From Phoronis australis (taxonomy: Eukaryota > Animalia > Phoronida), in the NCBI GenBank assembly GCA_002633005.1, contig NMRA01000586.1, forward strand, positions 1-44,174: a DNA stretch of 44,174 nt, read 5' to 3'. The notes beneath the pieces are model-generated. The model did not search any database. It saw only the letters and a list, made by a program, of their open reading frames with translations, and had not been told where the DNA came from. Made by a program: the position numbers and the translations under genes. Positions 1 to 17,015 of this stretch are shown piece by piece (within the stretch, counting starts at the first letter, position 1; each line of letters opens with the position of its first letter).

Positions 1-1074
1 AACAGGAATCATAGACATCCCGCGCGCTCCGTCTATGGTTCTGACATTTCAAACTTTCAACACGATAGGTAGCCGCAGAAAGTTCGATGTTGACCTTATT
101 ATAACCTTCACTGCAGTCCACATTGTGGGGACGAAAACAATTCAAATCCGCTCCTCGAAGTAGGGCTTGCTTAGCTGGAATTCAGAACTGCGGTGATGAG
201 AGTGTTTTCACCTCCTGATTGCGAAGCGATCGAGTTAGCTGTGGTGTCTTCATCAGCGCGTGCTCTCAGCGGGAGGTCACCGCTTTATGCACTCTGAAAG
301 CGGTCGACAACAACTAAATTGACGAGAGTCTCAGAACTCCCACATGCAAATTTGATATGCAAATGAGGGAGTACTTGACTTCTGCGCCATCTATACATCG
401 ACGGAAAAGCTTAAATACCGGTGACTGCGTGTGAGAAATTGCGATTGCGTGCGCTGAAGTCGATATTTTCAAAATACAATTACACCACTGTTTAAGGTTG
501 AAAAGTGAGTTTTTTGATATCCTTCTATAGAAAAAGCTTTAATCTCTCTGATAAAATCATCTGTTTCATTTTAAACGAAACTTAAGTCCTGAAATTAGTC
601 CGGGGAAGGAGGCCAAAAACGGCGGTTTAGCTAGTTGTCCCTTCCTGATTATCTCTTCCTGGCTATATTCATATGATTGACTTCTATGACTATGACTCAG
701 CGGTGTTGGGAAGTTTTCTTTTAGTGCGGGAGAAAATGCGAGCCCCCTCCTCCAGCAGCCAATCACGTCATCATATAGTTACATCGCCCAGTTAAAAGGC
801 TCTCGGAACATGAGCTTCGGTTTAATTCTGGGTTGTGTTGCGTAGGCGCAACAAACTTGAAAAAAAAAACGAAACCATTGACACAAATCACGCGAGTGAA
901 AGGTGTGTGCTTTGCAGGAATTTGCGTAGCGTAGACACGAAATGGCGGACACGGAAGTGATTCGTTGGTGAGGTTGGAGTGTTGAATTATGGGGATGAAC
1001 TCACCGTTTCTGTACCGTGAGCAACGATTTCTCGCCGCTAGGGCTTCGCAAGTGCTCTGCGTCTACGAAACGCA

Positions 1075-2440: not shown

Positions 2441-2844
2441 CCAGTATCCGAAAATGCTTTGAGATGCCAGCAGGGTAGTATTCTGCATGCAGCTTTGTTG
2501 ACCATTGTGGTCAGCGAGAATGTCCTACTCACATGTGTATGAATGCATAGTATGTGCACCTCATTCATGTACCACACCAGTATTGCCTGTTTGGTTTTGG
2601 AAATGTGTAAGCTGCTTGTGTTGTATGGGCATTGTTGAGCTTGAAATGCTAGTTTTACTCCTATAAAACTAGGGATGTATTTATTGCGACGTGTGTCCGT
2701 TATTGTTGTTACTAGTTTATTGCTTAACCAGTGTATCTATTTTGAATATTCTTCAAGCCTTGGATGANTGTGAGGTGTGCAATTTATTGCGGTTTTCAGT
2801 GACTGGTTCCACCAGGGATAGCAGTATTGTGCACCTACCGGTAC

Positions 2845-2865
2845 CATTACCAGCAATATTGAAAC
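2845..2865 (+). repeat. Left terminal inverted repeat of the RAG1-like transposon
   Basis: CATTACCAGCAATATTGAAAC versus CATTACCAGCAATACGTAAAC, the reverse complement of 12615-12635. Confidence 0.8.
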
Positions 2866-4106
2866 CGTGAACTGCGCATGCGCGAAAGTCACTCAGTTAG
2901 CCCCCTTCAGAATACATGGGATTCGCAGAAAACACAGCGTGATGGTCTTATTTATGAATCAATCACATTTGCCGATAGCACATAACATAGATAAGTACTT
3001 TATTAAAAACCTGGCCAAGTTTCAGCAAAATTGGAAAAAATTTTATGTTTAACATGGTATGGTCAAAGTTTTGGCTTATTTTGTCGCTTCGATCAGTGGA
3101 ATCGCCGCTAAAAAGCCGAAAGTGTATGTGAGAAAACGATAATTTTCGACCGAACCTTTCATTTGCGGTTAGTTGCCGATAGCACCAACAGAAGTCAGTA
3201 TAATCAAGATTGAAATGTAGGAGTTTGAAGAAAATTGGCAAAAAAAATGTAGTTAACATGGGGGTGGTGAAAATTGCCAATTTTTGTAATATCAATTCTA
3301 CTTGTTCACCGCACACCATCACCAGTGCGTCTAGTAAGCCTAAAACTTTTGCTTTAATCACTGATAATTTTCACACCAGCAAACTTGTGAATGCTTTTTC
3401 TATATATACCTTTTTGATTGCATGTTGAGCCAATAAATATCGCTTGAGATTTTAAAGAGCTGAAATGCAGGCGTTTTAAAGATTGGTTTATTTGTGAAAA
3501 AGTCAATGTAAGAAGAGAGTTATGAAAAGGAAATAGATATGATTATCTTCTGATCACTTAAGACTCAAAATATATTCTTGGCATTTGTTAATCAGACCTG
3601 ATATTGAGTGTGGCTGTGGTTTGGAATTTAAAGGAGTCATCACAAAATGAATTTATGAGATTTGCACTGTTCAAAAGACCAGTGGAGGTAGTACAAGACA
3701 ATGCAGCGGGTAAGAAGGACCGGAAAATAATGTCTGCAACAAAAAAATAACTTACAAATCTTTATTCTGACAGCTGAAATTTATTTCCAACACTGCAGAC
3801 TCGACCTGCCTGAGCATTTTGTTTCAATCCAGTCCAAGCAGGCAGGTTGCCCCCCCCCCCCTTAATGTTGTAGTTGTCTTGATGAAAAAATAGAATTTAT
3901 TTTTCACACTATTCCTGGATCAATAAATATTACTCAATTGATTGTTGGTAACAATGAACGTTAAATAAAATAATAAAAGAAGTTGACATACATGTATTCA
4001 AACATGTTTATTGCATATCAATGGGCAAGAAAACTGTGCATACAGTACAAAAATGCATGGCTTAATGACAGCTTGGCAACCATAAACAACAAATGAACAC
4101 AACACG

Positions 4107-6032
4107 AACAACGGGGAGCCTTAAAATGTGCCAAGGATGCTCCGCAAATGGGGTGCTTCTAGGGGTGTTAATTTCTATCATATAAATAGCCACTTGATGG
4201 CACGAAATACGTTGAAACCACTAGATAGTGCAAAATATATCGAATCTCGTACGTGCCATCAAAGCTGTTTACCAAATTTCATAAAAATAGATCAAGGAAT
4301 TTCTTAGAAACCAAGGAAAACCAAGAGGTGCCACAGTAGATGAAGTCGTTGGAAATTCATAGTCAGACTTCCTCTTCAGATTGGGAACATACATGCCAAT
4401 TTCCACAGTAATCCAAATCGTCTGAAAATCATTGTCAGCTGTCTTCTTTATAGTAAACACATACATGCCAATTTTCACAATCATCCTTTGAGTGGTTTGG
4501 TTGATAGAGGGGTGGACGCAAAAATACAGATTCGAAAACAGTAAAAATGGCCACTAGGTGGCGCAAACTATGTCGAATGCACCTGAAAACGGGAGGATAG
4601 CGTCATCTCACTAATAGGTGCCAACATACCAAATTTCATGAAAATCCGTTCAGGACTTTTGAAGATACAAAGGTAAGCGAAAAAAAATTGAAATTGCCAC
4701 TAGGGGGCACACCGGTAGTCAGATCCGTCCAAAAGTCGTCATCTTCCAATGTTAACATCATATAAATATACTTACACAATTTCGTAAAGATCCTGCGAAC
4801 GGTTTAGGAGATACAGCAATAGGCGCAAAAAAAAAAAAAANAACGGGACGATAGCATCACCTCACTAATAGGTGCCTACATACCAAATTTCATGAAAATC
4901 CGTTCAGGACTTTTGAAGATACAAAGGTAAGCGTAAAAAACTACAATTGCCACTACAGGGCACACCAGTAGTCGGATCCGTCCAAAGGTTCGCACATGCC
5001 GTCCCATTCATGAATGGAACATATGTGCCAAATTTCATGAATGTATGTCAAAGGGTTTTGGAGATAAAGCAGCGGACGCCGGACGGACGCCGCCCGGACG
5101 GACGGTCGGACGGAGATGACGGCATACTGCGTCCACATCTAAATAAGTGGGCGCATAAAAAATAATAAAACTGCCAGTAGGGGGCACACCGGTAGTCCGA
5201 TCCATCTGAAAGTAGTCGTTGTTTGTTGACAATAAATACAGCAGCTAAACTAAAGATCCTGCATAGGGTTTAGCTATGTGCATGAAAAAATGCCACTAGG
5301 AGAAGCCACAATTGTAGAGGTCGCTGGAAAATCATTGTCAGCCATCCTCTTCATATTAGGAACATACATGGCAACTTCCACAGATGTCAAAAACAGACTC
5401 GAAAAAAGAAAAAAAATGACTACTAGGTGAAGCAAAATACTTCGAATTCAACCGAAAACCAGAATTAGACAACCTCATCTCACTAATAAATGCCTATCTA
5501 CCAAATTTTAAGAAAATCTGTTCCAGGCCTTGGAAGATACAGAGGAAAATGCAAAAACCTTAAAACTGCGCACTGGTAGTCCGCTCCGTCTGAAAGTTGC
5601 CAACCTCTGTTGTCAACTAAATAAAAATACTTCACAGTAGTTGTCAACAAATCATCATCAGGCGCCCTCTTCACAGTAAGAACATAATTATATGCAAATT
5701 TTCAAAGTCATCCCTAGAGCAAAAAGAGACTCATAAACAGTAAAAATGGCCGCTAGGTGGCGCAAAGTACCTTGAATCCGTCCGAAAACAAGAGGATATC
5801 ATCACCTCACTAATAGATGCATAACTGTCAAATTTTATGAAAATTCGTTGAGAACTTCCGAAGATACAGAGGAAATCGTAAAAAAATAAAATTGCCACTA
5901 GGGGACACACCGATAGTCTACGAGGTCCGAAATTTGTCGTCATTCGTCGTCAGTTTCAAAGTAACACACCGGCCAAATGTCATCAAGTTCCCGAGAGGTT
6001 TGGGCGATACAGCTGCGGACAATGGACGCCAG
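4107..6032 (+). mobile_element. HINE/pearl-like non-autonomous element(s) with internal tandem subrepeats, nested in the transposon
   Basis: Repeated GCCACTAGG(T/G)GGC cores, a GGAC microsatellite (~5073-5113) and a 3' hairpin TGCGTCCAC..GTGGGCGCA-TAAAA (5128-5160). A second truncated array runs to ~6032. Homologous to 17983-19786, 34777-35480 and 39650-40839. Contains an N join at 4841. Confidence 0.7.
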
Positions 6033-6105
6033 ATGCTCATGCAGAAATGAAAGCAACATGCCACCACATTTTTATATACATGTGTGGTTGCATAATAACA
6101 TGGAA

Positions 6106-8613
6106 TCATTTATCTTGACAAAGCTTACTCAGGTGAATTTTCAGTAAGTTACGTAACTTTGGTTCACTACGCAACTTCGTCTTGATACCAAGTTCTTTTA
6201 ACCTTTCCTTAATATCAGAGACACTCATAGTATCTAGTGGTACAACTTCACCTGAAACGTTATTTTCTGTCTCAACAGTTTCAACGGACACTCTTTTTCG
6301 CTTTAGGTAAATTGTGTCCTCCCAATATTCTGCATTTCTCTTGACATACGAATTTGGTGTCCTTACTTTATCACTGAGGTGAGTTTGTCGCCAACATGTT
6401 TTCACAACATCAGCACATGCCTCTAGTTTATTAGAATGTTGTTTGTGAATGGATTTAACAACATCATTTAATCTCTCCATACCCTGACCACTAAACTGCC
6501 TTATACCACAGTGAAGCTTGGCAAGAGTGGGAAGGTGATATACCAAAATATGCATATACGGGGTAACTCTCTTTCTTTCGTAACCTTTTCGCTTACCTTC
6601 CAACGAGACAAAAAGGGACAACCATCTATGCCCCAAATTAAACAAGCTGGCCTGAGCCACTGCATCAGTGCTTTCGTAAGGGTGACTCAGTGCATCATAT
6701 AACACAGAAAACTGCCTCCAAAGCTCAATGGTTAAAGCTTCTGTATCTTGATGTAACAACTTTCTTTGACGCAACACTTCTGGAAGATTTTTCAGCAATT
6801 TCTTTTTTTCGTCACCCATAAGACTACTAAACTCTATAGCCCCTGTTCCTTTACCATTACAGTCAGTGCTTTCCCACACCTTAAAACTTACACCGCATGC
6901 CCTAATTGCCCTAACAATAGCATCTAAATGAGTCTGACTTCCTAATGATCTCCCAATAGCACCAACTTTTACTTTTGCATCAAGATCAGTTGCATCAGTG
7001 ATCAGATTTTCCAAGAGCCTATCGGTTATGCGCAACATTAAATGCAGCTCATCAATTACAATATGATTCAATGGTAAATCTACCAAGGGCGGATGCTTGC
7101 AACTGAAAGTTTTACTGTTTGAGCAGGTTCTTAAATCTTCTATATCTCGAATTAAGGACGGTTGCTCATAAAAGCATTCTGGCTTAGAAATATCACCCCT
7201 ATCACTCTTATGAATCTTGCAATATAAACATGCATGATTTGAGGTTGCACCTGACAAACCTAATATCATCAACAGAAACTTGTAGTCGGCAGCAAGAAAA
7301 ACTTTCAAGTCGTAGTCTACATTGTCCACACAAACAGAACCTCTCGAGTGTAGCAAGTTTATTGCATGCCATACGTTACAGAATGCCGACCTATACATAT
7401 CATAACTTTCATGGGCTTTAACAACCGCTACAGCATGGTGCTCATGCGAGATGATGCTACCCAGGGGACTTACTAGAGAAAAGCTCACCACACACATCCC
7501 ATGGTTTCTACTTATATTAGTGCCGTCACCACAGAATTTCACAGAAAAGGAGAGCTTTTCGTTGGTTTGAGTCAACTCCGGATGTCGAGCCAAGAATGAT
7601 TTTATACAAAATACAAGTTCCTGCTCAATGTCAATTTCTGCACCCTGTAATGGTCCCGGTGTTCTCTGTACATGACAAATGGTATTCATATCAGCACGTA
7701 ACTGCTTTATGAGATATGTTTTGGGCAGGCCATTACAGATGACTGATAATTCATGATAAAAGCTATCAGAAACGTAAAACCTATCCAAAAGGTAAAGAAT
7801 CTGTTTTAACGTATCTTCATCTGACTCAGCAACCTTACTTTTACCACTAACATCATGTTGAGCACCCAATGAGTCAAGCACAGACAGGTTATTCAGCTTC
7901 AGACCGTATGCATCTAAAAACCACAAAGCACACTCAGCCCTAGATCTAACTTCTTTAATGCATTTTAACTGATACGTTCTACTGCATTTAGAAAACTCCA
8001 CCTTGTTACTGCACACACTATCAATACGAACTCCACAAATACCCTCAATGTACTTGGACAACTGAACATTAGTCTGAAGTAAGTTGGCATTGTTTTCAGC
8101 CAACAATTTAATGGAATCATTTTGGGCATCTCGCACCTGCCTAAGCTCGTTTATTTCTGAATGAAGATTATTTATATCTGCCTTTAATGCAGATATGTCT
8201 GACCTTGCAGAGACAACATCACTGGACAGTTGCTCATTACTTTGCTTCAGCTCTGCAACAGAGGCTAGATCAGAACTAGTGATATTAAAAGTCAACGACT
8301 TTTTTAAAAGACCATATAGTGTGTTGCCTTTTGCCTTTTTCAACTTCCTAGCTACAAGTGGACATTCTCGTCGCAACCTTTCTCCAAGCCTACTAACATT
8401 GATATCGAGCGTGAGCTTATAATTTTGTTCTAAAAAGTGACTTAAGAGAGAGGAATATTTCAGTACAGATCCCCCTGAGCATGAATACCAGTCCTTACAT
8501 ACACTATATGGGACTTTGGTGGAAAACAAAATAGAGTCACCATTTAAAGACTGGTTATGTTTAAACCGTTCAGTTGGCTGAGACTGAATTAGAGGTTTAC
8601 TATGACCAGGCAT
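6106..8613 (-). CDS. Intact 835-aa DDE transposase of the RAG1/Transib/Chapaev clan
   Basis: Motifs VKFCGDG (D363), LAADYK..LGLSGATSNHACLYC (D443, C462/C465), IDELH (H524), SLMGDEKKKL and TPYMHILVYH..FSGQGMERLN (H688/H693, E713). These parallel RAG1 KESCDG, GYDEK..GLEASGSVYICTLC, IDALH, RMNGNFARKL and TNYFHKTLAH..ASEGNESGN. Confidence 0.88.
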   Translation of the reverse strand: MPGHSKPLIQSQPTERFKHNQSLNGDSILFSTKVPYSVCKDWYSCSGGSVLKYSSLLSHFLEQNYKLTLDINVSRLGERLRRECPLVARKLKKAKGNTLYGLLKKSLTFNITSSDLASVAELKQSNEQLSSDVVSARSDISALKADINNLHSEINELRQVRDAQNDSIKLLAENNANLLQTNVQLSKYIEGICGVRIDSVCSNKVEFSKCSRTYQLKCIKEVRSRAECALWFLDAYGLKLNNLSVLDSLGAQHDVSGKSKVAESDEDTLKQILYLLDRFYVSDSFYHELSVICNGLPKTYLIKQLRADMNTICHVQRTPGPLQGAEIDIEQELVFCIKSFLARHPELTQTNEKLSFSVKFCGDGTNISRNHGMCVVSFSLVSPLGSIISHEHHAVAVVKAHESYDMYRSAFCNVWHAINLLHSRGSVCVDNVDYDLKVFLAADYKFLLMILGLSGATSNHACLYCKIHKSDRGDISKPECFYEQPSLIRDIEDLRTCSNSKTFSCKHPPLVDLPLNHIVIDELHLMLRITDRLLENLITDATDLDAKVKVGAIGRSLGSQTHLDAIVRAIRACGVSFKVWESTDCNGKGTGAIEFSSLMGDEKKKLLKNLPEVLRQRKLLHQDTEALTIELWRQFSVLYDALSHPYESTDAVAQASLFNLGHRWLSLFVSLEGKRKGYERKRVTPYMHILVYHLPTLAKLHCGIRQFSGQGMERLNDVVKSIHKQHSNKLEACADVVKTCWRQTHLSDKVRTPNSYVKRNAEYWEDTIYLKRKRVSVETVETENNVSGEVVPLDTMSVSDIKERLKELGIKTKLRSEPKLRNLLKIHLSKLCQDK

Positions 8614-8773
8614 TTTGGATCTGTATTACTTTTACTCTATAAAAACAGAGCTCAGAATATCCCTCTCTCTTAACTCACCATTTAGAACAAAGAATGAACC
8701 ACTGGATCAATACTCAAAGCAATAGCATCATACAAGTCAGCTAAACAAAACCACATGACAACTTTAAAACATT

Positions 8774-9286
8774 TCACAACTTGAAAGCATCTGTGCACGC
8801 ACGAAGAAGAACCTTTTCTTGTGGGATTCGTGAAATTTCAACAATCTCACCATATTCATTGTGTTTAAAGTTTCTTGACGACCACTGAACAACAGGGCGG
8901 AGCAAAATCGGGAAAACAAGAGTTCTTCCAATGCCTTGGTAGTCGACCAAATAGTCCCAACCCTCCGGGAGACCAATATTGTCAAAATCTTCTTTGCAGT
9001 ATTGAAGGTACCCTTTCACAGCACCTGGTTTCTCCTCGATACCACCAAAAATATTGCGGAAAACATCTAAGTCAATGTTAGTGTCAAATACATTCGATTC
9101 CAAACCTGAAGATGACAAACGCTTTTGAAGAACAAGGTAAAGTGCTTCCAATCCTTGTTGACGGCGGAAATCCTCAACACTTGGACACTTGTAAGACTTC
9201 ACGAGATCACTGGTGAGATTTGTCTCGGGCTCCCATGACGAAGCACTCAGCGGCCAGTCCTTCCACAGAACCAAATACTCATAATG
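8774..9286 (-). CDS. Chromodomain protein, exon 2 (second half of the chromodomain plus an unknown C-terminal domain)
   Basis: Acceptor ctttccag precedes HYEYLVLWKDWPLSASSWEPETNL, in frame with ORF 8774..9274. Matches the chromodomain consensus EYLVKWKGY....TWEPEENL. Confidence 0.85.
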   Translation of the reverse strand, partial: HYEYLVLWKDWPLSASSWEPETNLTSDLVKSYKCPSVEDFRRQQGLEALYLVLQKRLSSSGLESNVFDTNIDLDVFRNIFGGIEEKPGAVKGYLQYCKEDFDNIGLPEGWDYLVDYQGIGRTLVFPILLRPVVQWSSRNFKHNEYGEIVEISRIPQEKVLLRACTDAFKL

Positions 9287-9810
9287 CTGGAAAGTATGAA
9301 TAGTTGTTTATGAAGTTAAATGTCAGGAATGAGAAACAACAGTTTATTGTCGGCCTTTCATTTGGACTCACCAAAAGTGAAAAATAGGAAAAAATAGGAA
9401 TTTCACAGAAAAGTAGGAGAAAGTAGGAGTCTCTCAAAAAAATATAAAGTACAAAAAATAGGAATCTTGGCGCCCTGATGATTAGAGGGACACTTCGGGA
9501 GGACTTCGATTTATTTAATTCCTTTTAAGTCAATAACGATATACTCCCTGTTTCAAACTTTTTCTTTGAGCAGTCCCAAGTTCAGTTCCAAAAATTGAAA
9601 ACACACTATTTTTAATTTTGTAATATTGCCTTGCGCATCATACAGTCTAAAAATGTCCCGCACGTCAAACCCTTGGTCTGACATAACGGAATCTCCAGGG
9701 TCACACACTTGAGGCAAGCTTCTTCTCTCTGTGATCTGCCTGTCACTAGTCGACCCAGCATAACTTTAACAATAAACTACATAGAGTATGGATTTGTATA
9801 ATGACAACAT

Positions 9811-10157
9811 TTAATCTTAGGCATTAGTACTTAAGCTATCTTAAGTATTCCTATTTAATTTCAACTATTATTAGGTATTAGTACTTAAGCTATCTTAAGT
9901 ATTCCTACTTAATCTTAACTAATCTTAGGTATTAGTACTTAAGCTATCTTAAGTATTCCTATTTAATCTTAACTAATCTGATGTATTAGTACTTAAGCTA
10001 TCTTAAGTATTCCTACTTAATCTTAATTAATCTTAGGTATTAGTACTTCAGCTATCTTAAGTATTCCTATTTAATCTTAACTAATATTAGGTATTAGTAC
10101 TTAAGCTATCTTAAGTATTCCTATTTAATCTTAACTGATATTAGGTATTAGTACTTA
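9811..10157. repeat. 54-bp minisatellite, ~6.4 copies, each with a palindromic core
   Basis: GTACTT anchor at 9827, 9881, 9935, 9989, 10043, 10097 and 10151; core TACTTAAG-CTAT-CTTAAGTA. Confidence 0.95.
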
Positions 10158-12375
10158 CTGTAAAGGTAAAATTTGTGTCCAGGTATTTGTAAGCTTACCA
10201 ATAACACCAACTTTAGCCCAGTTTTAGGGATGCTCACAAGGTGAGACCAATTGTACAACACTAAACCAAGTGTCAAGTCAATTTGTAGTTATTTTGTAGG
10301 TGAATCAATCACCAATAATTATTTTGCAAAGAATGCATATAGTGTTCAGTTTACAAAATCCTGGAGAGTTAGTGGCTTACCTAACTTAACTAAATCCTTA
10401 GTACTAAAAACATAAAGATCCTAATTATTTTTAGGAATTCTAACAAGCCATATCCAGATAGCAAGTTACCCTGGAGGAAATTGAAACATGAGACAATTCA
10501 ATCTTTTCTCAAAGAGCGCACATCTGAATGGTGTCAATGTGGGCAGATGTAAGTTGCATTGACCCCTTCTAGGTAAACTCATGTTGGGCAACTGCCATCT
10601 GGTTACAGCGTGATACTACCTGTTTTCTGACCAAACTAGCTGATATCTTCACTGTATATAGTACTATAGGGATGTTTATATCAACTCAGACCATCATGTC
10701 AATGCAAACAAAGTAAAATTCTATTGTCTGCAATCAACATAAGTGATGTGAGCATCATAATCAAGGGTATAAGACATCATGCTGTAAAATAGAAAATGAA
10801 AAATACTCTTTGAAATTAAAGGTTACTAATGAGCTTATTTCTTACAATGAATATTTTCAGTATCAGTATAAAATATGTTTTAATTTCCTACAAAACATCT
10901 CGTTACTAACAAAAGGCTGTTAGGAATTGTTTTCAAAATGTTGCATGTTTACCTAAGATGCCATGAAAAAATACAATGTCAATTTTATAAAGAAATACCT
11001 TTACATGGTGGATGAAACAACAACAGAAATTTTTTGTTTTTCATGATTTTATCATGGAATATTCAGTTGAAATGAATCTGGACATGCTGCTAATACGACT
11101 GTTTTGTTACAAGATTGTACACTTATAACTTTCATTTTTAAAATGTAGTTTACTAATACTAGCAAGGTCAAATGACCCCAAAAATCACAAATTCGTCTAT
11201 GATCTAAAAATGAGATTCTGTAAACCTTCAGAAAAAAATAAATCTAGACTTCTATTGATACTTACTGTAAACGTAGGTAGAGCAGGAACATACTGATAAT
11301 GTACAGAAAATAAGAAACAGAATCAACACACATAAATGCAATATATCTTTTGGACACCATGCACAAAGTTTTCCCTAAGATGGATCTGCAAACTCTAACT
11401 GTCAACTTAGGCATGGGACATTAGTATGGTAGTCACTCCTATTTATACAGACAAGTCAAAAGCTGTCCATAATCAATGAGTGCACAGCCAATGATACCAG
11501 ACATACTTCACAATTGATGGGCACTGTACAAGATTTTTTGAACCGTGCAACAAGTGTTCAACAGTATGACAGGTTTTGTTCAATTCCAGAGTTTAAGACG
11601 ACTGTTACTCATGGTTTACTTTTCACACGCTTGATAAAACAGGCAACTTCAGTGTCCTTATTTTATTCACCAGTTACTGTACAATGTCGAAGTAATCATC
11701 CTGTTGCGTCCTGAACACCGAGCGGATTGCACGACGCAAGTAGTTCTTCTGGTGGCTAAAGTAGATACTCCTACTATAAACTTGAATACCCATGAACTGA
11801 AAGTCTCAGGATTTTAGAAGGCAAATTTCCCAAAAATAAAATGGTGTTCCTTGCATGTTTCTCCTGTTAGTGGCTGCAAGTGTAGCATAGTATGTAAGAA
11901 TTAAGAAAAAACAATGTTTTTTATAAACAATTCGGTACTTGCATTTCTGGTGTCAAAAAGGTGTTTTTAGCCACTGAAGGCTGTCTTTGAAACAAGTCAC
12001 GTCACGCGAACACTGGCTGTTGACTTGCACAATCTCTAGTATGCATTTTTTTCTGAAATTTTTTTGATATTATAGGGCTTGCACATTGGGAGCCATGAGA
12101 TGTGGGCGTAAGCAGCCGTGGGCATATTATTCGTGCCGCCTACTGGTCTCTAACAAAACAGTTACTTCAATATTATGGTAAACAGAATAAAGACAAGCAT
12201 TCAAATTTTAATGTGTTCACGCTCCGCCTATTTATTTCACCCAGATATCACAAATATCTCACCAGCGTACTAAGTCGCAGACGTGTACTAGCAGTCATTA
12301 CCCGCCAAATCTTGAAATATTCCTAATCAGGCTGAACTAGGCCTACCACTATTGAAACTGTTATTTTTTACTTAC

Positions 12376-12534
12376 CCCTTTGACTTCCTTACGGGTGATG
12401 ACCCTTGCTATAGGCCAGAGATCTTCAGAGATGTTTTGTCTTTCCCTTTTAGATGAATATCTCTCAACTTTTGGTAGTTTCGGGCTACTAAGCGCCACAA
12501 AATCAATTCGGACCTTCCTGGTACTTCTCTCCAT
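12376..12534 (-). CDS. Chromodomain protein, exon 1 (53 codons)
   Basis: MERSTRKVRIDFVALSSPKLPKVERYSSKRERQNISEDLWPIARVITRKEVKG followed by a GTAAGT donor in phase 0. Splicing to 9286 completes a canonical chromodomain. Confidence 0.8.
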
Positions 12535-12614
12535 TAGATACGCGGAGTGTGAAGCGCTGATTGGTCAATGAGCGATGACCTAGATTACGTGCAGCGAACC
12601 TGGCGGATGACATA

Positions 12615-12635
12615 GTTTACGTATTGCTGGTAATG
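12615..12635 (-). repeat. Right terminal inverted repeat of the RAG1-like transposon
   Basis: GTTTACGTATTGCTGGTAATG, inverted relative to 2845-2865. Confidence 0.8.
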
Positions 12636-12778
12636 TTTGCTCAAACCCATGTTTCATATTATTATATTGATAACTTTTCCTCGTGAAGGTAGTGATCTCA
12701 GCAGTTATATCACTTATGGTGTTTTGTCAAGTAGTAGAACCTTGTACTGCTATGACACAAATTTTGAAGGTTCCTATG

Positions 12779-13024
12779 TTGTAGTTAAGTCCCACTTTAA
12801 ATATTTTGCTCACCATGTGAGTTATTCTTTACATGGAGGGATTCATACTTATGGATGATCTCATCAGGGATTGCATGTAACACTATTTGGGTGTGTATAT
12901 TTGTAGTTAAGTCCCACTTTAAATATTTTGCTCACCATGTGAGTTATTGTTTACATGGAGGGATTCATACTTATGGATGACCTCATCAGGGATTGCATGT
13001 AACACTGTTTGGGTGTGTATATTT
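12779..13024. repeat. 122-bp tandem duplication (2 near-identical copies)
   Basis: TTGTAGTTAAGTCCCACTTT... starts at 12779 and 12901 with only a few substitutions. Confidence 0.9.
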
Positions 13025-14545
13025 GTTACATGTTCATTGTATAAAGTGTATTGTTTATATTGCAGAGTTTATAATTGTTAGTTAAAAAGATTTCGGTAGG
13101 TTATCTCAACAGTGCTTAGTGCATGTTTTGCTCATCCTGTGAAATGCAATATTTATACTGAAGAGTTTATCATCGCTACTGCCTGTGTCCCTTATTGCTT
13201 TTCCCATAGTATGAACAACTAGTCATGTTAACGTTTGAAATTCTCATGTACAATATATATTACACTATTCCGAAATCTTACACTTATTTTCATTGCCCAA
13301 GCACTAATCTGAAGAGTGGCCTACTAGTTGTGGAATGCGCACAATGCATTGTTAAAGCGAGGTGATCGTATGCCGCTGGGTTTTTGTTTTCTTACTCTTT
13401 GTGAACGCAGTGCCTGTAATTCGCATTTATTCCTAAGTTTATGCAATCATTTTAAATTACAAAACATGAAACCCTGGGAACCGGTGGGGCAGTTAAATTT
13501 TGACATCGACAATATATACGTGTCATTTGAAGTAGTAGCCCGTTGTAGGGTGCCACGACCAAAAATATGGGTACACATCACATGTTTAACCACAAACAAC
13601 AAGTGAAAGAGTTACTTTTTCAGGTAAGCGACGCGTTGCGCGCTTTGGTTGTTTTTGTCCGTTTTAGGTGGCAAGTGGCGCTTTTTTCTTTGACGATTTC
13701 GCTGAGGTACGTTTCAGAAAATCGTACTGTAGGCCTAAGTCATTTTTTCTGTGCCAGTTCATTTAGGTACACAGCAACTGAAAAAATGGATAAATCACGT
13801 CATTTTAAATCTCCATATCGCTCCGTTATGGCCACTTCGACTTGGATGGATTTTGGCTCTTTCAAACACTCCTCCATGCTCTATTTTTTGAAGTTCGTTA
13901 ACGAAAACGCGTACCAGGATGTAAGGTTCGTGCCCTCCCCCTCGAGTTTTAGTTGGTAATTTTGACATGAAGATGATGGTGATATTTATGCGTTCCTTGA
14001 CGAGAATTCCAGCAAGTCAAGTTTTGCCTAATTCAGCTTTTCATTCATTTTTATACCGTGTATGGTCGCTGGCAAAATAAGATACCATCAAGATTTTAGT
14101 CTAGATGTTTCCTAACTCGGTTTTTGGCCATAACACTAGTTATAGGAATCTGATTATGAGCGCGCAAGAGAAGACGGAACATATTTGCGACGTTTCGTTT
14201 ACTCAAAGTTAATGAGCCTAAACGTCAGAAAATATTTGTTTTCTCTTTCTCGCTTATAATGATTTTCAAGGGTTTCCGTTATTCAATTTCGGCAAGGTCG
14301 TCGCTTTCTCGCAAAACTACCGATTGGATGATCAATTACGCACTTATTTACTCTCCGTTTTAACGTTGATCATCGTCAATACACCTCCAAAAATTGCACA
14401 TCGTCTTTGCGCAAACTACATTGAGATTTAAGTCTCCCGAAAAAAGTTGACGATCGGATAGTGTTTAAAAGTCTAATTCTAAATTTCTCCAGTTAGTGCA
14501 CAAATGAAGTAAAAGAAAGTAGTTCTGCTTGTCGCGTCAGCTGTT

Positions 14546-14788
14546 GGTATCATTATCTCGACTTATGACCCACAACGCGTGACAGGACAAAGCCTTTTCA
14601 ATTTAGCCGGTGGAGCGTGAGACCCCTGAGGTCCCAATCGAGTCCTCACGACAACTCCGCGTTATGNGGTATCATTATCTCGATTTATGACCCACAACGC
14701 GTGACTGGACAAAGCCTTTTCAATTTAGCCGGTGGAGCGTGAGATCCCTGAGGTCCCAATCGAGTCCTCACGACAACTTCGCGTTATG
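14546..14788. repeat. ~121-bp duplication flanking an N (probable assembly overlap)
   Basis: GGTATCATTATCTCGA... at 14546 and 14668 on either side of the N at 14667, with 4 substitutions. Confidence 0.8.
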
Positions 14789-15509
14789 TTAGCCGTACCT
14801 CTTGTACGTTGCCTCGAAGGCTCTCTGATCACCTTTAAACTCGGATTCTATTAATGTGGTACGCTAAAAGCTGTTAAGTTGTAGTTAATACGTATACACA
14901 TGTGTTGACTGCTAGTAAAGTTTTCTTGAGAACCACATTTCTTTTAATTTCATACCCTATATTCATCTATAATGCGTTTAAAAAACACTCCCACTTCCCC
15001 ACAAAATTTTGAGAAAACAAAATTTTCAACTTCGGCTGTCTTAGGAAATACGTCACACGAGGAAGATAACCCGATCAATGCCGAGTCTGTTCATAGTGTC
15101 CAGTGCCAAGAGGAGTACTTTCGTTTTTTCGAATTTAGACGGATTTTTAGATTAAGCTAGAGTAAACATTTGAATAATGCCCAGCCGTTGTGTAGTTGGA
15201 TGCTGTGACAATACGCCACGGCCTGGGATATCTTTAGTTTGCACAAGTTTCCCACTGATTCAAGACTGCTTTGCAAGTGGGAAGACTTTGTTAAGACCAC
15301 GAGTGGAGTGTTGCCGTATTTGGTAGCATGTAGCGAACATAGTTTTATGGAATGCTTCGAGGACGATAGCCTGCGATCCAAGTATAGTTGTCAATCAAGA
15401 TAGGTGAAATTTTAGAGAGTATTCAAAACGGTACATGCCGTCGCCTTGCGCAAGGTAGTAGGCCTTGGGCTAGTATTAAACCTAACATTCAAAATGGCGG
15501 AAAGCATCG

Positions 15510-16600
15510 CAACGCCAGAAATTTGTAACATTCTTGATCCGCTAGGTGACGCTTAGCGCCATGTCCCTAACCAATCATAACAACGCATAGTGAGGTTAAA
15601 GGTCATGAAGCTTGGCACTATTACCGGAGCCGAAGTCAGTATGCTCTGCAGAGCAATATTTATCAAGTTTACAATAACAGCATTTGGAATGTCTGGGTCT
15701 ACAGTATGACAGTGCTAGCTGGGTGATTGGGGTCACAGACACAGCTATCAACATAACCACAACAAATTTGAACTGAACGCCAGCCAGCCAGCCGCGTGTG
15801 CTTGCAATTGGCTTAAACGGCTGCCAAAGCGCTTTTTATTAATTTTCTGATGTTTTTCAATACATATTTGTGTCCGGAATCCACTCCAATGTAACAGTAC
15901 TGTGATCACAAAAAACGAAATAACATTTTGAAGATTACTAGTATATCAACTATATAGGCCTACTCACAGGCGAAACTTGCATAATGACTGTAAAAAATCC
16001 GACTTCGAAAGTATTTCTGAACTCATACCGGATGAGAAAATGAACAAATCAGTTTCTTACCGATTCTACGCTAATCTCTCATCTACAGAGTGCAAATTCC
16101 ATTGCAAAGAGTCGACAGCCAGGCGATCGGCGACATTTCATCTCACTGACAGCACTGTACGCCGATCCATTTTCTGAACACAAGAGACGTGAAAAAATTT
16201 TCGAGAAACAACATGAAATTTGGATCAGCAACCTCTGAGTACTCCTGGTAGTCACCTAGGCTATCGGCAAATCCGATGGCAACATGAATTCAGCCACAAA
16301 CTTGACTTCAAAATGAGCTATGTGCTCAAATAGTGGCTTCCGGACGATCGTTAACATAGGCCTGAACGGGGTAACCTTCAAACTTCAAGAGACGTGGAAA
16401 AATTTTCACCATTGGCGCTGATATTTGGCGGTAACATGTCTTAACATACACTCTATGTGACAGGCTATCGGCAAATTGTGTAGTTATCTCCCCTTGCTTA
16501 TAAATTCCTGATTTTGCCTGCTCTTGTGTATTTCATATGGAGGGCTGCTGGCAAGATTTAGCGCATGCGCAGTTGTGCATGTTACAAATTTCTGGCGTTG
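15510..16600 (+). mobile_element. Non-autonomous (MITE-like) relative of the RAG1-like transposon, in opposite orientation
   Basis: Perfect 22-bp TIR CAACGCCAGAAATTTGTAACAT (15510-15531 / 16579-16600). Both ends share subterminal motifs with 2845-12635. No convincing ORF. Confidence 0.8.
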
Positions 16601-17015
16601 GACGAACACTGTCGGACAGGATTAGTGCAAGTAGCCAGTGGATTGCTTTTCTTTTGAATAACGATTTTTGCAGCATAAACGCTTATAGATGGATGTGCTG
16701 AATAGCTTGATGCTTGTTACCTGTCGTTGCAATCCTAGTCGATCGCTAGCTGAACTGAATGAACAGTAAGAGTAGGGCGGTCTAACCAATTTTTCTTGAT
16801 TATCAAAAATATTTAAATATAACATAATTTATCCCACTCAATAAAAATTGAAAAATTATCAAAATCGGGTCAAGCAATGCAAAGTTATTGCAATTTTGAG
16901 GCGAAATTTGGGTCATTTGTTTGGATTGGGTCGGCCATCTTGGACGACAGCGGCATTGTTGTGAATGCGGTTTTCTTTCATTGTGTGGCGTCATGCCGTG
17001 CTGTCTGTGTTCGTC

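Follow-up and report, generated by a model that had tools for sequence, protein, structure and literature searches.

A two-gene transposon of Phoronis australis with a predicted RAG1-like transposase, a chromodomain partner gene and no target-site duplication

The window analysed here is a stretch of 44,174 nt of the phoronid Phoronis australis (contig NMRA01000586.1), and all coordinates given below are positions within it. It contains a transposon of 9791 bp, bounded by terminal inverted repeats (TIRs), in which a gene for a transposase with a predicted RAG1-like fold lies next to a gene for a chromodomain protein. We consider it probable that this is an intact-looking two-gene element, whose RAG1-fold enzyme inserts it without duplicating the target and whose chromodomain protein likely steers or licenses transposition. 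The element apparently belongs to an undescribed lineage of the RAG1/Transib/CMCT clan that carries two genes and generates no target-site duplication (TSD). A broader proposal, to which we give somewhat less than even credence, is that this lineage is of superfamily rank, comprises thousands of protein clusters, and combines an enzyme structurally closest to RAG1 with TSD-free insertion and dependence on a chromodomain adaptor. It would then represent a second, independent design joining a RAG1-type enzyme to a histone reader, in which convergent and tandem gene orders both occur, as in RAGL elements.

The ends of the element are marked by an inverted repeat of 21 nt (2845-2865 versus 12615-12635, 86% complementary) and by the end motif CA-nnn-CCAG-n-AAT, of which the window has four copies, arranged in two facing pairs, when 0.31 would be expected. 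This count of four was matched by none of 200 mononucleotide shuffles, and the second facing pair forms the ends of a separate element of 1091 bp at 15510-16600. A joint leading directly from 2844 to 12636 is present in the reads and contigs of 8/8 public runs, including all four DNA runs, and is supported in the RNA sets by 152, 161 and 248 reads (X5-X7) and by one X8 contig. The joint skips 9791 bases with CA..TG ends, and 0 letters are common to its two sides. In the RNA-set tables it carries no mark and is absent among the best-supported rows with intervening letters, although it is better supported than those. This joint, recurring in all eight runs, fixes both ends of the element and indicates that there is no TSD; the initial annotation had described inverted termini around an intact transposase, and both the termini and the uninterrupted reading frame are confirmed. 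No direct repeat of 1-10 bp is common to the two insertion flanks. The summed contig depth of the flanks far exceeds that of the transposase gene, so that the joint molecules are most likely uninterrupted copies of the host repeat; paralogous empty sites were used by the same logic for the Spy transposons (PMC4122938). No TSD of 2-10 bp was found in any of the four elements with two placed ends, namely the window element, its neighbour at 15510-16600, and two elements from the metagenome loci described below, L005 (148-5383) and L017 (578-4931); at most of these loci, TIR pairs could not be fixed. The target repeat itself (~2770-2844 and 12636-15100) is multi-copy and transcribed, and contains two 122-bp tandem duplications (12779-13026 and 14546-14788).

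The transposase is encoded by a single open reading frame (ORF), and its fold is predicted to be RAG1-like. An alignment-based structure model (predicted local distance difference test 88, predicted template modelling score 0.68) matches RAG1 with a Z score of 25.3 in VIA-align, over 442 aligned residues at a root-mean-square deviation of 3.3 and 12% identity. The corresponding Z scores are 24.4 for BbRAG1L, 14.7 for HzTransib, 12.5 for the P element and 9.1 for Hermes, values that cannot be used as a ranking of kinship because the Transib comparison used an unbound crystal form. Foldseek concurs with a RAG1/Transib fold (HzTransib E 2e-10). At the level of sequence profiles, the family has RAG1 (E 4e-7) and BbRAG1L (2.3e-6) as its best PDB matches, with its catalytic and zinc motifs aligned with those of RAG1, while HzTransib gives no match to the profile at E<=10. 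In an alignment of 127 rows, the catalytic residues are conserved in nearly all rows that have a residue at the position (D363 in 110/111, D443 in 118/119 and E713 in 96/97), as are the zinc ligands (C462 and C465 in 122/122, H688 in 99/102 and H693 in 98/98). Taken alone, the 835-aa protein matches no Pfam transposase family, and phmmer against the PDB gives no RAG1 for it; none of 60 relatives reaches the Pfam RAG1 cut-off, one of them matching DUF1280 and another RAG1 weakly. The RAG1/Transib-type assignment of the initial annotation therefore holds for fold and motifs, but not at the level of Pfam or phmmer matches to RAG1.

The transposase family is large. A word-indexed search returned eight homologs, and the profile of these eight matches 8275 representatives at E 1e-3, a figure possibly including coiled-coil noise, 3689 at 1e-10 and 772 at 1e-30. 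The nearest neighbours of the transposase in a language-model comparison are unnamed cnidarian and fungal proteins, followed by RAG1. No relatives were found in viral contigs or prokaryote genomes, and a viral structure library gave one weak match.

The second gene lies upstream of the transposase on the same strand, and the gap between its end and the transposase ATG is exactly 160 bp, as first annotated. Its predicted spliced product is a protein of 223 aa. Exon 2 matches the Pfam Chromo domain (PF00385, E 6.2e-8, 32.9 bits against a cut-off of 25.1), and its closest solved structures are Polycomb/HP1-type chromodomains. The predicted splice adds the first chromodomain strand and a third aromatic residue, thereby completing a set formed by W40, W61 and W64 with spacings of 21 and 3, in which W40 depends on that splice. 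The aromatic residues of the canonical chromodomain cage have the same spacing of 21 and 3. Judging from these sequence features, the partner likely binds methylated histones. The codon position and phase of the intron are identical in the related locus L003, and the placement of exon 1 and the N-terminus of its product are alike in L001, L003 and L005. The C-terminal 130 aa are conserved among partners; this domain finds no sequence match in the PDB, and its ESM Atlas hits stay below 0.9. The partner showed no catalytic domain, and none of the 74 window frames of at least 68 aa gave a kelch match. The earlier view of a partner unrelated to RAG2 is upheld. Across nine aligned partners, the frames are open at 24-49% identity. 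A homolog search with exon 2 returned one protein, P0043; its longest contig and those of the transposase fragments P0009 and P0017 are all 20322 long, a hint of linkage. A single fused protein was considered and rejected: neither exon 1 joined to any of the 14 AG sites in the gap nor the strong-looking donors of exon 2 would put the partner and the transposase in one reading frame. A longer or fused form of the partner was not found, which is weak evidence. Prediction of a complex between transposase residues 8-778 and the exon 2 product, run twice without alignments and without exon 1, scored 0.00 and is uninformative either way.

The pairing of the two genes extends beyond the window. Relatives were collected as 58 metagenome loci encoding transposase homologs, grouped into 26 nucleotide families. 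With the window chromodomain protein as the sole query, a partner is detected at seven of the 58 loci (E<1e-3), always downstream and on the opposite strand. Using profiles of two partner types, 25 of the 58 loci have a convergent partner and one a same-strand partner, eight have none despite at least 800 bp of room, and 24 offer no room. Counted by family, the partner is convergent in 14 of 26 and on the same strand in one, two families lack it (truncated relics), and nine are represented by contigs that are too short. The partner gene thus adjoins the transposase in 15/26 families. The tandem linkage within a common TIR motif put forward in the initial annotation is borne out as regards linkage and motif, but not as regards gene order, since 14 families are convergent and the single same-strand one has a broken transposase: at L053 (234-401), a chromodomain exon lies just upstream of it, the sole possible tandem among the 58 loci. 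Thirteen ends have C1, A2, C6, A8, A12 and T13 in common, and the third base is T in 11 and A in two of them. L004, L005 and L013 are 99.9% identical, begin at the TIR and have three different flanks; identity of this order with flanks differing from the TIR outward indicates that the family moved recently.

The second partner type has a chromo-barrel-like start, with the chromo barrel of MYST proteins as best PDB match (E 0.002), and is found in the clade formed by L015-L022, L028-L031, L043, L045 and L055. The C-terminal domains of the two types show a weak likeness (hhalign score 25.5, E 0.0015), and none of 244 block shuffles scored as high. In a transposase tree of 27 rows chosen from 89, midpoint-rooted without outgroup and including 18 rows without known partner, the two partner types lie on opposite sides of a 100/100 branch. 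The pairing is old and inherited with the transposase, and the gene order is labile. The tandem order seen in the window probably derives from the convergent order through a flip of the transposase gene. Indeed, the far end of the window element carries a GCATGCGC-type motif, about +30 from the left TIR, and such a motif is found at the transposase-side end of L005 and L033, which suggests that the transposase gene was flipped in the lineage of the window element. An artefactual tandem order is unlikely, as contigs cross the junction without differences, though those runs may themselves underlie the assembly. Two further observations concern the relatives. At L018 and L030 the chromo-barrel-type partner is a single open frame, which offers a simpler pair for experiments. 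At L027, L032, L048 and L057 the transposase matches are fragmented, their gaps falling at similar positions of the profile, a pattern that suggests an intron-bearing sub-lineage.

Altogether, these findings lead to a model in which the RAG-fold transposase would bind the TIRs, cleave them and carry out strand transfer, by cut-and-paste as in RAG and Transib. Both ends would be joined at one unstaggered target position, with 0 instead of 5 bases between the sites of strand transfer. The partner would serve as a two-module adaptor, in which the chromodomain contacts a histone tail and the C-terminal domain contacts the transposase or the element DNA, and would steer or license transposition via the binding of methylated histones. 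An adaptor tied to the transposase suits the data, because the reader type was switched while the C-terminal domain was kept and followed the transposase tree.

Several points weigh against this reading. As for the ends, just one empty site is observed; the joint is flagged 'between: not known' in the DNA runs, and the zero intervening letters are read from the RNA-set tables. The left end of L017 and the right end of L005 are set by TIR similarity alone, and the joint by the element at 15.5 kb runs from 15470 to 16645 and is no clean empty site. As for expression, RNA depth is below 5 over both genes, the RNA datasets listed include none for 6100-9300, and the few reads over exon 2 are on the strand opposite to the reads over the transposase. 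The splicing of the chromodomain gene, part of the initial annotation, is backed by the GT-AG prediction and by the intron match in L003, but no splice junction occurs among the joints listed from the RNA runs. As for the pairing, the linkage counts are partly circular, since the loci counted also supplied the partner profiles and the second type was selected for its position as the ORF that faces the transposase. Among the eight loci that have room and no partner, L006, L009, L011 and L048 have a relative with a partner, and L036-L038 and L042 are truncated. With untrimmed alignments, the two partner types match at a probability of 2.7% and E 0.017. Finally, the chemistry and the adaptor role are ones that we infer.

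The main rival to the adaptor model holds that the partner is an anti-silencing or self-regulatory factor, which binds repressive marks on the element's own copies and plays no part in transposase contact or targeting. We judge this unlikely, yet far from negligible. DNA transposons are known to capture such genes, for example TET/JBP (PMC12730594). The chromodomain of the partner is closest to Polycomb/HP1-type readers, its gene always begins just inside one end, with a promoter-like region of its own, and its orientation is free to vary, all of which a self-regulatory factor would accommodate. Chromodomain and chromo barrel read different marks. The reader module changed type, whereas the C-terminal domain stayed and tracked the transposase tree, which argues for the adaptor. 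The lack of a detectable catalytic domain in the partner also counts against the rival.

A comparably low probability attaches to the view that the lineage is one already catalogued in Repbase or Dfam, under Transib, Chapaev, EnSpm, ESTA, Lanisha or as unclassified, in which case the annotation alone would be new. The C(2)C and H(3-4)H motifs, together with the CA..TG ends, are what defines the CMCT clade (PMC12730594), in which ESTA also resembles RAG1 by HHpred. Transib TSDs range from 2 to 5 bp (10.64898/2026.08.26.747230), curators may have encountered a family of this size (772 representatives at E<=1e-30, 3689 at 1e-10), and a match to DUF1280 and a weak one to RAG1 each occur in 1/60 relatives. 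Against this view stand the TSDs of CMCT members and those of Chapaev3 and ESTA detailed below, which have no counterpart here, and the full-text literature searched holds no such two-gene element.

It is distinctly less probable that the family generates short TSDs, whose absence here would result from later deletion or mis-set ends. Beyond the single empty site and the flagged DNA-run joints noted above, this idea can point to three other cases that rest on flanks. However, the two sides of the joint have 0 letters in common in 8/8 runs, and the four elements with unrelated flanks all agree, one of them from the young family of 99.9% identity. Finally, it is very improbable that the element carries the chromodomain gene as passive cargo, a fragment captured from a host gene and without a role, even though the copy also holds a nested repeat, a DDE_Tnp_4 relic and a tandem array and eight loci with room lack a partner, since partner frames stay open over the nine diverged proteins with an intron position in common, and the partner occurs in both transposase clades with a fixed placement at one end.

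Table 1. Features of the two-gene transposon and of its surroundings in the window.
Feature	Position	Strand	Remarks
Two-gene TIR transposon, whole	2845..12635	-	9791 bp; CA...TG ends; no TSD; sits in multi-copy transcribed host repeat
Left TIR, end distal to chromodomain gene	2845..2865	+	Inverted-repeat and end-motif search
Left subterminal region	2845..3284	+	Common to diverged, apparently multi-copy relatives
Nested dispersed, internally repetitive host repeat	4100..6070		Outside conserved element; heavy RNA and DNA cover
Transposase ORF	6106..8613	-	835 aa; ATG 8613, stop 6106; uninterrupted
N-terminal alpha/beta domain	transposase residues ~1-118		Predicted
Coiled coil	transposase residues 119-193		Predicted
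RAG1-fold core (predicted)	transposase residues ~262-755		D363, D443, E713; C462, C465, H688, H693
SAP-like tail	transposase residues 797-817		Below Pfam cut-off
36-nt inverted-repeat arm	8424..8459		Within transposase coding sequence
36-nt inverted-repeat other arm	8656..8691		Within 160-bp intergenic gap
Partner exon 2	8774..9286	-	Second chromodomain half and conserved ~130-aa domain
Predicted intron	9287..12375	-	3089 bp; phase 0; GT-AG; inside chromodomain
Harbinger/ISL2EU-type transposase relic, unrelated	9562..9765	-	In intron; Pfam DDE_Tnp_4 E 2.7e-5, 24.3 bits vs cut-off 24.8
54-bp tandem array	9812..10157		6.4 copies; in intron
Partner exon 1	12376..12534	-	53 codons; carries a basic N-terminal motif as well as the first chromodomain strand; ATG lies 101 bp in from right end
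Right TIR	12615..12635	-	Inverted-repeat and end-motif search
Separate 1091-bp element, same end class	15510..16600		22-bp perfect TIR; no TSD of at least 2 bp

The remaining features of the element and its surroundings are collected in Table 1. Nested repeats make up about 2 kb of the 3' region of the element and parts of the intron. Further copies of the 4100-6070 repeat lie at ~18.1-19.8, 34.8-35.5 and 39.6-40.8 kb; the repeat is abundant, with strong and one-sided RNA. In the left subterminal region, the summed contig depth far exceeds that of the transposase gene, and an X8 contig matches 2845-3284 with 29 differences. The 36-nt inverted repeat has four mismatches, two of which are G-U pairs on the coding strand, and the transposase ATG lies within the hairpin predicted for the RNA (z -7.97, for a region picked because of the repeat); the repeat may be a regulatory structure or may have been left behind by an inversion. 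In the neighbouring element at 15510-16600, no gene was found; it has short motifs in common with the left end of the transposon, is apparently multi-copy and is, on these sequence grounds, a probable non-autonomous relative. The window also holds a broken reverse transcriptase of the LINE (long interspersed nuclear element) type at 1672-2281 on the minus strand, and no Rfam families.

If the proposed reading is true, the element provides a living comparison for the coupling of RAG1-type enzymes to chromatin readers, usable with an intact gene pair. A RAG-fold transposase with zero stagger would also identify the portions of the fold that determine the 5-bp target geometry seen in RAG and Transib, and tool builders would be interested in a scarless integrase whose reader module can be swapped. 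TSD-less cut-and-paste was called unique to Spy among eukaryotes in 2014 (PMC4122938). Annotation pipelines based on TSDs would overlook all of its members, a possible reason why the family has no name.

Comparison with known systems places the element closest in design to RAGL/ProtoRAG. Both have a RAG1-type core with DDE residues and a C2H2 zinc site, and two genes between TIRs; most relatives are convergent like ProtoRAG (PMC7204232), while the window element is tandem like AanRAGL (PMC9435367). As with RAG2 and its PHD finger in the RAG1-RAG2 pair (PMC10462144), the partner carries a probable methyl-lysine reader. However, this partner is a 223-aa chromodomain protein and not a kelch and PHD protein, the ends read CA(T/A) and not CAC as in the heptamer of the recombination signal sequence, and the 5-bp TSD is lacking. 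An alpha/beta N-terminal domain, a long coiled coil and a SAP-like tail replace the N-terminal region of RAG1, and identity to RAG1-type structures is 12-14%. Since RAG1L and Transib cores together average 26% identity (PMC9435367), the transposase family falls outside RAG1L and Transib as sampled in that study. The lineage may stand inside the RAG clan, as the initial annotation suggested, or beside it. Full-text searches of the literature, in a scope that left aside Repbase Reports, most subscription journals, bioRxiv supplements and the supplements of RAGL papers, turned up neither a RAG1-like element carrying a chromodomain gene nor one lacking a TSD.

Transib, represented by HzTransib (PDB 6PQN/6PQX), has the same fold class (Z 14.7, Foldseek E 2e-10) and short TIRs, but a single gene, a CAC-type end and a TSD of mostly 5 bp (2-5 bp), whereas the window element has two genes and no TSD. 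Because TSD length is labile within Transib (10.64898/2026.08.26.747230), lack of a TSD is not enough by itself to fix the rank of the lineage. The wider CMCT clade (EnSpm/CACTA, Mirage, Chapaev and Transib, along with Plavaka, ESTA and Lanisha; PMC12730594) shares the motifs C(2)C and H(3-4)H, situated after the second D and before the E, as well as 5'-CA..TG-3' termini. It differs by TSDs of 2-5 bp, against 0/4 double-ended elements here, and no chromodomain partner gene is described in the available part of that paper. ESTA has a TA TSD (PMC12730594) and Chapaev3 has CAC ends with a 3-bp TWA TSD (PMC3014272), none of which is found here. Spy is likewise a TIR-bounded DDE element without TSD, documented by paralogous empty sites, but is a member of the PIF/Harbinger-ISL2EU group, with insertion sites between AAA and TTT (PMC4122938), a context seen in 0/4 flank pairs here; the present transposase has no DDE_Tnp_4 match and has RAG1/Transib as its best folds. 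Chromoviruses of the Gypsy group (PMC12477816) are also mobile elements encoding a chromodomain, proposed to guide insertion, but in them the domain occurs as a fusion to an integrase of retroviral type, whereas here it is encoded by a separate gene, predicted to be spliced, in a DNA transposon. The data fit an element that lies outside RAGL, Transib, Chapaev3, ESTA and Spy on the features tested, that is RAGL-like in design, and that fits, except for its missing TSD, the wider CMCT clan.

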